64,000 nucleotides of DNA, from NCBI RefSeq assembly GCF_013122565.1, contig NZ_CP053258.1; one strand, written 5' to 3'. Source of the DNA: Escherichia coli (GTDB lineage Bacteria > Pseudomonadota > Gammaproteobacteria > Enterobacterales > Enterobacteriaceae). Both the position numbers and the translations under genes were made by a program. This document shows, piece by piece, positions 3,359-31,365 of this stretch; within the stretch, counting starts at the first letter, position 1; every line of letters begins with the position of its first letter. The notes under the pieces are model-generated. The model ran no database searches. It saw only the letters and a program-made list of their open reading frames with translations, and had not been told where the DNA came from.

Positions 3359-3453
3359 TGGCGGAAGATCACAGGAGTCGAACCTGCCCGGGACCGCTGG
3401 CGGCCCCAACTGGATTTGAAGTCCAGCCGCCTCACCGGAGACGACGATCTTCC
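3359..3453 (-). tRNA. selC: tRNA-Sec (selenocysteine, anticodon UCA)
   Basis: Reverse complement is GGAAGATCGTCGTCTCCGGTGAGGCGGCTGGACTTCAAATCCAGTTGGGGCCGCCAGCGGTCCCGGGCAGGTTCGACTCCTGTGATCTTCCGCCA, 95 nt, with the long variable arm and encoded CCA typical of E. coli selC. Confidence 0.95.
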
Positions 3454-3745
3454 GCGCCTCGATTGCTACATGGAGGCGGGGCGCATTATAGCTACTTCCT
3501 TGAGTTTCTACATCCCCCAGATCAGTTTTTTCCGCCTAATACACGCAGCGTATTATCACGAAAGCATTATAGTTCATATAAAATTCATATTTTTCAATGA
3601 TATATAAGCGGAATTAACGCTACCACGATCACATAAAACAAGAATCATAAATTAATAACCAGATATCGGAATATTCGCTCTCACAGGGATGGTTTACAAA
3701 ATGCGTTATCGGTCTCAGCACCCCTATAGCATCAAGGAAAAGCAG

Positions 3746-5128
3746 ATGAAGAGTGAAGTGTTGTCCGTTAAAGAGAAAATTGGTTATGGCATGGGAGACG
3801 CCGCCAGCCACATTATTTTCGATAACGTAATGTTATATATGATGTTCTTTTATACCGATATTTTTGGCATTCCTGCCGGATTTGTCGGAACTATGTTTTT
3901 GGTCGCTCGTGCACTGGATGCGATTTCCGATCCTTGCATGGGGTTGTTGGCCGATCGAACGCGCTCTCGCTGGGGTAAATTTCGTCCGTGGGTACTGTTT
4001 GGCGCACTGCCATTCGGGATCGTCTGTGTACTGGCCTATAGCACGCCAGATCTCAGTATGAACGGAAAAATGATTTATGCAGCAATTACTTACACCCTAC
4101 TTACCTTACTTTATACCGTCGTCAATATCCCTTACTGCGCATTGGGTGGTGTAATCACCAATGACCCGACTCAGCGTATCTCGCTGCAATCCTGGCGTTT
4201 TGTGCTGGCGACCGCGGGAGGCATGCTTTCTACTGTTCTGATGATGCCACTGGTTAATTTAATTGGTGGTGATAATAAACCACTCGGTTTCCAGGGCGGT
4301 ATCGCGGTCCTTTCCGTGGTGGCATTTATGATGCTGGCATTTTGTTTCTTCACCACTAAAGAACGCGTTGAAGCACCACCTACAACGACGTCTATGCGGG
4401 AAGATTTACGTGATATCTGGCAAAACGACCAGTGGCGGATTGTCGGTTTACTAACCATTTTCAATATCCTGGCGGTGTGCGTACGCGGTGGAGCGATGAT
4501 GTATTACGTCACATGGATTTTGGGTACGCCGGAAGTGTTTGTCGCTTTTCTCACCACTTATTGCGTGGGTAACCTGATTGGTTCCGCACTGGCAAAACCG
4601 CTGACCGACTGGAAATGTAAAGTCACTATCTTCTGGTGGACGAACGCCCTGCTCGCAGTGATTAGCATCGCGATGTTCTTTGTTCCCATGCAGGCCAGCA
4701 TCACTATGTTTGTCTTCATCTTCGTGATTGGTGTGTTGCATCAACTGGTGACACCTATCCAGTGGGTAATGATGTCCGATACCGTCGACTACGGCGAGTG
4801 GTGCAATGGTAAACGCCTGACCGGGATCAGTTTTGCTGGCACGCTGTTTGTGCTCAAACTGGGGTTGGCCTTCGGCGGCGCTCTTATCGGCTGGATGCTG
4901 GCTTATGGCGGATATGATGCGGCAGAAAAAGCGCAGAACAGCGCCACGATTAGCATCATTATCGCGCTATTCACGATTGTTCCGGCGATCTGTTATTTGC
5001 TGAGCGCGATTATCGCTAAACGCTACTACTCACTCACGACGCACAATCTGAAAACCGTTATGGAACAGCTGGCTCAGGGTAAACGCCGTTGCCAGCAACA
5101 ATTCACCTCTCAAGAAGTGCAGAACTAA
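3746..5128 (+). CDS. yicJ: MFS glycoside-pentoside-hexuronide:cation symporter family transporter
   Basis: ORF with multiple TM segments; ATG at 3746 gives 460 aa (K-12 YicJ length); immediately upstream of yicI. Confidence 0.85.
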   Translation: MKSEVLSVKEKIGYGMGDAASHIIFDNVMLYMMFFYTDIFGIPAGFVGTMFLVARALDAISDPCMGLLADRTRSRWGKFRPWVLFGALPFGIVCVLAYSTPDLSMNGKMIYAAITYTLLTLLYTVVNIPYCALGGVITNDPTQRISLQSWRFVLATAGGMLSTVLMMPLVNLIGGDNKPLGFQGGIAVLSVVAFMMLAFCFFTTKERVEAPPTTTSMREDLRDIWQNDQWRIVGLLTIFNILAVCVRGGAMMYYVTWILGTPEVFVAFLTTYCVGNLIGSALAKPLTDWKCKVTIFWWTNALLAVISIAMFFVPMQASITMFVFIFVIGVLHQLVTPIQWVMMSDTVDYGEWCNGKRLTGISFAGTLFVLKLGLAFGGALIGWMLAYGGYDAAEKAQNSATISIIIALFTIVPAICYLLSAIIAKRYYSLTTHNLKTVMEQLAQGKRRCQQQFTSQEVQN

Positions 5129-9338: not shown

Positions 9339-10730
9339 TTACTGTTTTTCTGGTGGGAAAATCAGATTCAGCACGATGGCAGTAATACCGCCCGCGGCGA
9401 TCCCGGAGGAGAGCAGGTTTTTCAGCCATTCAGGGGCAAACTGCAAAATCAGCGGCTGCTGAGACACGCCCAGACCAACCGCCAGCGACAGCGCGATAAT
9501 CAGAATCGCCCGACGGTTCAGCGGCTCACGAGACACAATGCGCACACCGGAGGCGGCGATGGTGCCAAACATTACAAGCGTTGCGCCGCCCAGAACCGGT
9601 TCTGGAATGTGTTGTACAAAACCGCTCACTGCCGGGAACAGACCCAGCACGATCAACATCAGCGCGACGACAAAACCGACATAGCGGCTGGCAACACCGG
9701 TCAACTGGATCACTCCGTTGTTCTGCCCGAAGCAGGAGTTCGGGAAGGTGTTAAACACCGCCGAAACAAACGAGTTCAGGCCGTTTGCCAGCACGCCGCC
9801 TTTCAGGCGTTTCATGTACAGCGGACCGGACACTGGCTGTTCGGAAACGTCAGAGGTCGCCGTGATATCGCCAATGGTTTCCAGCGAAGTGATCATAAAG
9901 ACCAGCATCAGCGGCAGCAGCAGACTCCATTCAATGCCAAGACCGTAATAGAGCGGCGTTGGCACCATAATCAGTTCTTGCGTCATCGGTTCGTTGCTTT
10001 CTGGCAACATGCCCATAAACCACGCCAGCGCATATCCGGCCGCCATCGCAATCACCAGTGAGGCCACGCGTAAGTAAGGGTTACGTTGACGGTTAAGCAG
10101 GATAATTAAGGCTAAGACCACGCCTGCCAGCAGCAGATTTTTCGGTGCGCCGAAGGTGTTATCGCTCATGGCTGCGTAACCGCCGCCAATGGAGGTCAGC
10201 CCCACCTGAATTAGCGACAGGCCGATAATCATCACCACAACGCCAGAAACCAGCGGCGTAATAATGCGGCGCGCCAGATGCAGAACGCGGGAGATCACCA
10301 TCTCGGTGCAACTTGCCAGCATCAACGTGCCGAACAAAGCCGCCATCATGGTAGGAACATCAGCACCACCCGTTTTTAATGCCGTACCGCCCATAATCAG
10401 CGGGGCAACAAAGTTGAAGCTGGTGCCCTGAATAGACAACAGCCCGGAGCCAACCGGACCCCAGGCCTTAATTTGAATAATCGATGCCACACCGGAGGCA
10501 AACAGCGACATACTAATAATGTGTTGCGTGTCTTGTGCCGGTAAACCCAGCGCCTGGCAGATTAATAGCGCTGGCGTGATCACCGCAACGAACATCGCCA
10601 GCAGATGCTGACAGGCGGCAAACAGGGTTTGAGGAAGCGGCGGACGATCTTCAAGACGGTAAATCAGTTCGCTGTTTTGAGTCTGCGCAACCGGTTGCGC
10701 ATTTTCTGACTCGAGGGTGGAAACAGACAT
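9339..10730 (-). CDS. xanP: xanthine permease (NCS2 family)
   Basis: Multi-TM ORF; ATG at 10730 gives 463 aa (K-12 XanP/YicE length); NCS2-like motifs. Confidence 0.85.
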
Positions 10731-11009
10731 CGAAAACAATCCCGTGGTAGCAAAGCGGGCATTTTAGCTGACCGAAAGAGAAAAGCAAACGTTTGCCACG
10801 TCCTCCTCTAAATATTTAAATGAGATAAATGCACTTTTTTATATAACTTTTGGTATTTTTCTGCTTAAAATCCATGCCATTTGTTCATTAACAGCTGAGA
10901 ATTTGACCCAGGAAAGCATGACTCGATACCCGTCATATTTCATGAAGTTGCCACTGCGCGATGAAGTATGACGAGTATGAAAGAGTGATGCGGATACAAA
11001 GGAGTAACT

Positions 11010-22001: not shown

Positions 22002-22865
22002 TTATTCAATGTTCTGAATCTGCTCGCGCATCTGCTCAATCAACACTTTCAGCTCAATCGCGGAGTTTGTCACTTCGGCATTGATAGACTTCGACGCAAG
22101 AGTGTTCGACTCGCGGTTGAACTCCTGCATCATAAAGTCCAGACGACGACCAACGGCTTCTTTTTTCTTCAGAATGTTGTACGTCTCTTTAACATGCGCT
22201 TCGAGGCGGTCCAGTTCTTCGGCAACGTCAATTCGTTGTGCCAGCAGAACCAACTCCTGCTCCAGACGGTTGTTTTCCAACTGCACCTGAGCATCTTCCA
22301 GCTTCGCGACCAGACGTTCACGCTGCCATTGCAGGATTTCCGGCATATGGGCGCGGACTTTAACTACTTCGGCGGTGACGCCTTCCAGACGCTGCTCAAT
22401 CAACGCTTTCAGCGCCTGACCTTCGGTTTCGCGTGCGACAATAAAGTCGTCCAGCGTACCATCCAGCGCCGCGAGAATTTCAGCGGCAATGGCGTCGAGA
22501 TCTTGCTCCTGGGCCGCCATCACGCCCGGCCAACGGAGAATATCAACTGGGTTGATTTCCCCTTCGTCACTCTGCATTTTTACCCAGTTCGCGGCAGTTA
22601 CCAGCTGTTTAGCCAGTTTTTCGTTGAGGATCAGCTCACCTTGCGCGCTAACATCTGGCTCATAGCGCAGGGTACATTCCACTTTACCGCGCGTCAGGCG
22701 AGAACGAATACGCTCGCGAACGACAGGTTCAAGGCTACGGAACTGCTCCGGCAGACGAAAGTAAGTTTCCAGATAACGCTGGTTTACCGAGCGCATTTCC
22801 CAGGTTGCGCTCCCCCATTCACCCTTGATTTCACGCCGGGCGTAGGCGGTCATACTGCGGATCAT
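22002..22865 (-). CDS. yicC: YicC-family stress-induced protein
   Basis: 287-aa ORF, same length as K-12 YicC. Confidence 0.85.
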   Translation of the reverse strand: MIRSMTAYARREIKGEWGSATWEMRSVNQRYLETYFRLPEQFRSLEPVVRERIRSRLTRGKVECTLRYEPDVSAQGELILNEKLAKQLVTAANWVKMQSDEGEINPVDILRWPGVMAAQEQDLDAIAAEILAALDGTLDDFIVARETEGQALKALIEQRLEGVTAEVVKVRAHMPEILQWQRERLVAKLEDAQVQLENNRLEQELVLLAQRIDVAEELDRLEAHVKETYNILKKKEAVGRRLDFMMQEFNRESNTLASKSINAEVTNSAIELKVLIEQMREQIQNIE

Positions 22866-22991
22866 AGACGTTCCTGTTTATAAAAGGAGAGGTGGAAGGA
22901 TTATAGCCATCGATGCCTTGTCAGGATAGGAATAACCGCCGGAAGTCCGTATAATGCGCAGCCACATTTGTTTCAAGCCGGAGATTTCAAT

Positions 22992-23708
22992 ATGCGTCCA
23001 GCAGGCCGTAGCAATAATCAGGTGCGTCCCGTTACCCTGACTCGTAACTATACAAAACATGCAGAAGGCTCGGTGCTGGTCGAATTTGGCGATACCAAAG
23101 TATTGTGTACCGCCTCTATTGAAGAAGGCGTGCCGCGCTTCCTGAAAGGTCAGGGCCAGGGCTGGATCACCGCAGAATACGGCATGCTGCCACGTTCTAC
23201 CCACACTCGTAACGCGCGTGAAGCGGCGAAAGGTAAGCAGGGTGGACGCACAATGGAAATCCAGCGTCTGATCGCCCGTGCGCTTCGCGCGGCAGTAGAT
23301 TTGAAAGCGCTGGGTGAGTTCACCATTACACTGGACTGCGACGTGCTTCAGGCTGATGGTGGCACGCGTACCGCTTCGATTACGGGTGCCTGCGTGGCGC
23401 TGGCAGATGCGCTACAGAAGTTGGTGGAAAACGGCAAGCTGAAAACCAATCCAATGAAAGGGATGGTAGCCGCGGTTTCTGTCGGGATTGTGAACGGCGA
23501 AGCGGTTTGCGATCTGGAATACGTTGAAGACTCTGCCGCAGAGACCGACATGAACGTAGTGATGACCGAAGACGGGCGCATCATTGAAGTGCAGGGGACG
23601 GCAGAAGGCGAACCGTTCACCCACGAAGAATTACTTACCTTGTTGGCTCTGGCCCGAGGGGGAATCGAATCCATTGTAGCGACGCAGAAGGCGGCGCTGG
23701 CAAACTGA
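22992..23708 (+). CDS. rph: ribonuclease PH (apparently intact, full-length)
   Basis: [14 protein letters not shown]... through ...[16 protein letters not shown]; 238 codons with no frameshift. Confidence 0.9.
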
Positions 23709-23713
23709 TTTTT

Positions 23714-23741
23714 AAGGCGACTGATGAGTCGCCTTTTTTTT
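23714..23741 (+). terminator. pyrE attenuator (intrinsic terminator in the rph-pyrE gap)
   Basis: aaggcgactgatgagtcgcctt hairpin followed by a T run, 6 bp after the rph stop and about 30 bp before the pyrE start. Confidence 0.75.
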
Positions 23742-23773
23742 GTCTGTAGAAAAGTAAGATGAGGAGCGAAGGC

Positions 23774-24415
23774 ATGAAACCATATCAGCGCCAGTTTATT
23801 GAATTTGCGCTTAGCAAGCAGGTGTTAAAGTTTGGCGAGTTTACGCTGAAATCCGGGCGCAAAAGCCCCTATTTCTTCAACGCCGGGCTGTTTAATACCG
23901 GGCGCGACCTGGCACTGTTAGGCCGTTTTTACGCTGAAGCATTGGTGGATTCCGGCATTGAATTCGATCTGCTGTTTGGTCCTGCTTACAAAGGGATCCC
24001 GATTGCCACCACAACCGCCGTGGCGCTGGCGGAGCATCATGACCTGGACCTGCCGTACTGCTTTAACCGCAAAGAGGCAAAAGACCACGGTGAAGGCGGC
24101 AATCTGGTTGGTAGCGCGTTACAAGGGCGCGTAATGCTGGTAGATGATGTGATCACCGCCGGAACGGCGATTCGTGAGTCGATGGAAATTATTCAGGCCA
24201 ATGGCGCGACGCTTGCTGGCGTGTTGATTTCGCTCGATCGTCAGGAACGTGGGCGCGGCGAGATTTCGGCGATTCAGGAAGTTGAGCGTGATTACAACTG
24301 CAAAGTGATTTCTATCATCACCCTGAAAGACCTGATTGCTTATCTGGAAGAGAAGCCGGAAATGGCGGAACATCTGGCGGCGGTTAAGGCCTATCGCGAA
24401 GAGTTTGGCGTTTAA
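23774..24415 (+). CDS. pyrE: orotate phosphoribosyltransferase
   Basis: [13 protein letters not shown]...; 213 aa; PRPP-binding motif [13 protein letters not shown]. Confidence 0.95.
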
Positions 24416-31326: not shown

Positions 31327-31365
31327 CAGTATTCAGGTAGCTGTTGAGCCTGGGGCGGTAGCGTG
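31327..31365 (+). promoter_or_regulatory. JUMPStart element containing the ops site (RfaH recruitment) in the waaQ leader
   Basis: cagtattcaggtagctgttgagcctggGGCGGTAGCGTG; the 12-nt ops consensus GGCGGTAGCGTG is at 31354-31365. Confidence 0.7.

Follow-up and report, generated by a model that had tools for sequence, protein, structure and literature searches.

Does the rph gene in the 64,000-nucleotide stretch of DNA analysed here (the window) have the intact form or the rph-1 frameshift of K-12 MG1655 and W3110, and what does its state imply for the strain and for the expression of the downstream gene pyrE? The mechanism that links the two genes and the rph-1 phenotype have been described previously (PMC2784333, PMC9997739, PMC5933015). 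According to the account in PMC2784333, which refers to Bonekamp et al. 1984 and Jensen 1993, translation of rph is coupled to transcription at a UTP-sensitive attenuator. Transcription of pyrE in K-12 needs read-through of this attenuator, with a ribosome at the end of rph following closely behind an RNA polymerase that a shortage of UTP has slowed (PMC2784333). In rph-1 the stop codon is shifted away from the hairpin, which results in uncoupling and under-expression of pyrE, and adaptive deletions in MG1655 bring the rph stop back toward the hairpin (PMC2784333; PMC5933015).

The rph frame and its G run

The following features were identified in rph:

22992..23708, + strand: rph, encoding full-length RNase PH, 238 codons plus TGA (open reading frame, translation and profile match)
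23658..23662, + strand: five-G run, the rph-1 site (four G in rph-1 strains), in codons Gly223-Gly224, GGG GGA (alignment)
23677..23679, + strand: TAG, the premature stop of the rph-1 frame, out of frame in the window (MG1655 translation)

The frame is open throughout, from the ATG at 22992-22994 to the TGA at 23706-23708, with 238 sense codons in both the open reading frame and its translation, as had been claimed in the initial annotation. When compared to TIGR01966, the RNase PH equivalog profile, the product scored 380.8 bits, far above the curated cut-off of 141.5, and its residues 2-236 matched profile positions 1-235 of 236. Both Pfam domains were present (PF01138 at residues 10-140 and PF03725 at residues 157-222), and residues 2-237 could be aligned with residues 3-238 of the solved RNase PH chain 1r6l_A (E=3.7e-104). 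Because TIGR01966 is matched from end to end and both the Pfam domains and solved RNase PH chains are matched as well, rph is not a chance reading frame.

The C-terminal segment past residue 223, which follows the G run, is intact and ends like WP_001247093.1. Over its whole length the window protein is identical to this protein, annotated in strain 504239 (238/238 residues), and a large public collection lists exactly the same protein in 97,315 blocks. Judged by its sequence, it is the common E. coli form of the enzyme. RNase PH trims tRNA precursors as a phosphorolytic 3'-5' exoribonuclease, and since the window enzyme matches the common E. coli form exactly, it would be expected to have this activity. 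Ahead of rph, a TATAAT is found at 22950-22955; the sigma-70 scan called no promoter for rph. Further upstream, an open reading frame of 229 amino acids (22194-22883, + strand) lies antisense to yicC (22002-22865, - strand) and is probably a chance shadow of the yicC frame and no gene.

In a three-way alignment of the window with the MG1655 region (NC_000913.3) and the wild E. coli strain 504239, a single gap column was observed, in which MG1655 reads GGGG and both the window and strain 504239 read GGGGG. The run at 23658-23662 is thus one G shorter in MG1655, and W3110 has the same four-G sequence. This confirmed that the window does not carry the rph-1 allele. As stated before for MG1655, the deletion truncates RNase PH: its rph gene (b3643, annotated as 'truncated RNase PH') was translated to 228 amino acids, ending in ALARGESNPL before the stop. 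The TAG at which the rph-1 frame ends, within CCATTGTAG, is present in both the window and MG1655, but is out of frame in the window. It lies 34 nt ahead of the hairpin, whereas the normal rph stop lies 5 nt ahead of it. The rph-1 locus of K-12 (MG1655, W3110 and EMG2) and that of the window have the gene, its position and the sequences of attenuator and spacer in common, and differ in the GGGG of MG1655, in the end of its frame after 228 codons, about 30 nt earlier, and in 18 substitutions.

An open frame could also be found if the rph-1 deletion were present and a second indel nearby kept the frame open. We observed nothing in favour of this. The alignment has its only gap column at the G run, where the window agrees with the wild strain 504239, and an ungapped recount of 785 nt, beginning at the rph ATG and ending with that of pyrE, yielded, apart from this one indel, only substitutions relative to MG1655 (18, all inside rph). 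The last 70 nt of rph are identical to MG1655 except for the missing G, and the C-terminal peptide is that of WP_001247093.1. Since no second indel was found, a compensating change is excluded, and its probability is negligible.

Two of the 18 substitutions are visible in the protein: the window has A138 and T216, while the reconstructed K-12 rph+ protein has V and I at these positions. For this K-12 rph+ reference the MG1655 sequence was taken and one G was added; it was rebuilt in this way because NZ_CP026085.1, labelled DH5alpha, carries non-K-12 rph alleles. This RefSeq record encodes A138 and T216 and does not have the K-12-specific rph substitutions. With 4.83 Mb it is presumably larger than a typical K-12 genome, and it may be mislabelled or non-K-12 at the rph locus. 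From the best-matching complete E. coli genome, the rph-pyrE region of the window differs at 11 of 785 nt, all of them synonymous, and about 8 of these 11 differences are unique to the window among the aligned sequences.

The attenuator, the spacer and pyrE

Downstream of rph the following features were identified:

23714..23735, + strand: pyrE attenuator hairpin, 9-bp stem AAGGCGACT / AGTCGCCTT with loop GATG (terminator scan)
23734..23741, + strand: T8 run, the U-tract of the attenuator, beginning inside the 3' arm (sequence and terminator scan tail)
23774..24415, + strand: pyrE, orotate phosphoribosyltransferase, 213 codons plus TAA (TIGR00336, 240.6 bits)

The rph TGA (ending at 23708), the stem (23714-23735), the T8 run (23734-23741) and the pyrE ATG at 23774 are thus arranged in the order and spacing of the pyrE attenuator. 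Position 23774, which had been given as an end coordinate in the initial annotation, is the A of this ATG. The distance between stop codon and hairpin had been put at 6 bp, which is right to within 1 nt: between the stop and the 9-bp stem there are 5 nt (TTTTT, 23709-23713), and up to the G+C core of the stem, GGCGACT, there are 7 nt. The first two T of the T8 run are able to pair with the AA at 23714-23715. RNA folding of a 56-nt stretch returned the same stem, with a minimum free energy of -17.6 kcal/mol and a z-score of -1.9. Because this z-score is modest, the case for the attenuator is based on identity with the studied K-12 element and not on folding energy. The spacer between rph and pyrE (23709-23773) is identical to that of MG1655 at 65 of 65 nt, including the hairpin and the T8 run, and the PyrE proteins are identical as well (213/213 residues).

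The attenuator described for pyrE, which is modulated by UTP (Bonekamp et al. 1984; Jensen 1993), likewise consists of a hairpin and a U-tract directly after the stop codon of the upstream gene. In sequence, no difference could be detected between this K-12 element and that of the window. The window agrees with the wild-type E. coli rph-pyrE operon in the rph stop codon, in the 65-nt spacer with its hairpin and T8 run, and in the start of pyrE. The pyrE attenuator is not represented by any Rfam family, and the scan of the window at gathering thresholds returned only tRNA-Sec and JUMPstart. The tRNA-Sec gene (selC, 3363-3453, - strand) lies between the open reading frames 1537-2721 and 3689-5128, which by position are setC and yicJ, and no inserted island is visible in its flank. 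The JUMPstart element (31327-31365, + strand) is located upstream of waaQ.

When comparing attenuators of other loci, we came across two natural sequences that lack one C in the 3' arm, reading AGTCGC and then T8 instead of AGTCGCC, which gives a weaker hairpin. They are found in locus L008 (around 10718-10782) and at the equivalent site of locus L016, one of them being from GCA_050113055.1 and the other from a metagenome scaffold. The missing C appears to be the same as in the pyrE -41 deletion that arose in MG1655 during laboratory evolution (PMC5933015). The shorter 3' arm may reflect genuine natural variation or a sequencing error in a homopolymer.

Allele frequency and relationship to K-12

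The frequency of the two rph alleles was determined in 5426 complete RefSeq E. coli genomes. Two short queries centred on the G run were used, built such that the 28-base seed of megablast must span the run. The 46-mer with five G matched 5250 of the 5426 genomes (96.8%), and the 45-mer with four G, representing rph-1, matched 170 of 5426. Among the 60 matches listed for the four-G query, nearly all carriers were labelled as K-12 laboratory strains (MG1655, BW25113, J53, Keio and evolved derivatives). Five G together with an identical spacing from stop to hairpin were present in 15 of the 15 non-MG1655 loci that were fetched. One of these 15 is Escherichia sp. MOD1-EC7003, whose identity to the window is just 95%.

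As five G were found in 5250 of the 5426 genomes and in all 15 loci, MOD1-EC7003 included, the intact rph is the ancestral and near-universal state in E. coli. In PMC9997739 and PMC2784333, which on this point both cite Jensen 1993, rph-1 is presented as a peculiarity of one laboratory pedigree. An intact rph in front of pyrE is already known and is the ordinary wild-type state. Outside K-12 pedigrees it is no marker of a strain, because about 97% of the complete E. coli genomes have it, and its use as a strain discriminator in the initial annotation had to be given up.

These counts also bear on another explanation, in which the fifth G is a homopolymer artefact of sequencing or assembly and the true genome is frameshifted. 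Such miscalls occur in some long-read assemblies, but five G is what 96.8% of the complete genomes and all 15 non-MG1655 loci have, and of the 60 listed carriers of four G nearly all bear the label of a K-12 laboratory strain, whereas the window is not K-12. Moreover, the other open reading frames of the window that were inspected are full length. A miscall from four to five G is implausible because the 18 flanking substitutions show a non-K-12 lineage and all non-K-12 loci examined have five G. We therefore consider an artefact very unlikely and regard the five G of the window as genuine.

Next to the rph state, the initial annotation had described the segment as K-12-like. The gene order from lldP to spoT is indeed collinear with MG1655, and the genes of the waa cluster are those of the K-12 type, being collinear with MG1655 from waaQ to waaL/C/F at 96.1% identity. 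This core is not exclusive to K-12, as 1525 genomes cover at least 80% of a 15-kb waa query. At the level of sequence the description did not hold. Besides the 18 substitutions in rph, the window is 98.3% identical to MG1655 over 5.8 kb around the gene. Compared to a 50-kb stretch of MG1655, the identity is 92.7-97.9% across five collinear blocks that span most of it. Members of the K-12 lineage would be expected to exceed 99.9% identity with MG1655, and the window stays well below this value. The segment is therefore K-12-like in architecture only, that is in gene order and waa gene set, and should not be handled as K-12-like sequence. The earlier conclusion that the DNA is not from MG1655 or W3110 was right, but what shows this is the overall divergence, to which the rph state contributes nothing.

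The same comparison speaks to a possible origin from an rph+ K-12 strain, either a line without rph-1 or an MG1655 derivative in which the deletion was reverted by engineering or evolution. K-12 lines that do not carry rph-1 exist, for example WG1 (PMC9997739), and the MG1655 gene order from lldP to spoT, the K-12-type waa gene set and a PyrE identical to the K-12 protein would all be expected of such a strain. K-12 derivatives are essentially identical among themselves, however, and the window has 18 substitutions in the 717 nt of rph, two of them changing the protein (A138 and T216 in place of V and I), together with the identities of 98.3% over 5.8 kb and 92.7-97.9% in the five collinear blocks given above. 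It also has a YadA-type adhesin gene in place of yibL, and no complete genome, K-12 or other, is more than 98.8% identical to it. The divergence from MG1655 refutes an rph+ K-12 origin, which we regard as exceedingly improbable.

The adhesin gene is an open reading frame of 868 amino acids (61302-63908, - strand). Its product contains head, stalk and anchor domains of the YadA type, as is characteristic of trimeric autotransporter adhesins. The gene is located upstream of lldP, at the place of yibL in MG1655, and the best E. coli matches for this end of the window reach only about 95%. No transposase stood out in the list of open reading frames of the window.

A close relative was absent from the complete genomes as well. 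Among the 5426 complete RefSeq E. coli genomes, the best identity was 98.8% for 901 nt around rph, 98.6% for 24 kb, 98.6% for the first 10 kb, 98.0% for waa and about 95% for the last 11 kb. This set consists of E. coli assemblies only, and Shigella is probably left out of it. An exact 36-mer scan of the GTDB species representatives hit Escherichia sp. MOD1-EC7003 only, which with its 95% identity is not the source of the window. Loci that share the RNase PH or Dut protein with the window are just 93.4-98.9% identical to it. The LigB reading frame had no exact protein match, probably because the longest frame (562 aa, GTG start) was compared and the annotated form has 560 aa. The window comes from a lineage of the E. 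coli group that has no close relative among these 5426 genomes. Whether this lineage is also under-sampled and deep-branching is doubtful, and we propose it only tentatively; if true, the ancestral five-G rph and its attenuator would be documented outside the well-sampled phylogroups.

The closest sequence found, retrieved by means of the WaaL protein, was a Logan contig (SRR11451197, L018), which aligned to 31339-52598 of the window with 99.15% identity over 21 kb and no gaps. This identity is distributed unevenly. About 4 mismatches fall in the 14 kb of waa (about 31.3-45.6 kb), whereas the adjoining 7 kb, with kbl, tdh, waaH, yibQ and envC, are about 2.5% divergent. The sharp boundary at waa fits a horizontal exchange of the LPS-core locus, which would make this region a recombination mosaic. 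The mismatches between the window and this contig are mostly at third codon positions (121, compared to 15 at first and 10 at second positions), they comprise 137 transitions and 44 transversions, and they are clustered. Because of this third-position bias, the excess of transitions and the clustering, the divergence of the window is natural, and an artificial mutation of the sequence was rejected.

Expected regulation of the operon

Taken together, the evidence indicates that the window contains the ordinary wild-type rph-pyrE operon and derives from an E. coli-group strain other than K-12, a reading to which we assign a probability of about 0.96. The sequence holds nothing against this reading.

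For the expression of pyrE, the initial annotation had predicted a normal 'translational coupling' of rph and pyrE. This wording was loose, as no hand-over of ribosomes from one cistron to the next is involved; what stands is the coupling of translation and transcription at the attenuator, as it is described in PMC2784333. In the mechanism established for K-12, RNA polymerase lags in the U-rich region at low UTP, and the ribosome that ends rph is then near enough to mask the 5' arm of the hairpin, which prevents termination and allows transcription of pyrE. At high UTP the polymerase leaves the ribosome behind, the hairpin forms and transcription halts ahead of pyrE. In rph-1, the loss of one G puts a TAG in frame about 30 nt earlier, so that the hairpin is never reached by ribosomes. 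Termination is then constitutively high and pyrE under-expressed.

The sequence identity with the K-12 element suggests that this UTP-responsive attenuation also operates in the window. Because the rph stop is at its wild-type position and the hairpin, the U-tract and the spacer are identical to those of the studied element, normal regulation of pyrE is likely, and with five G, RNase PH should be active and pyrE expressed under normal control. The genome from which the window derives should therefore be free of the pyrimidine limitation and of the loss of RNase PH that complicate the physiology of MG1655 and W3110.
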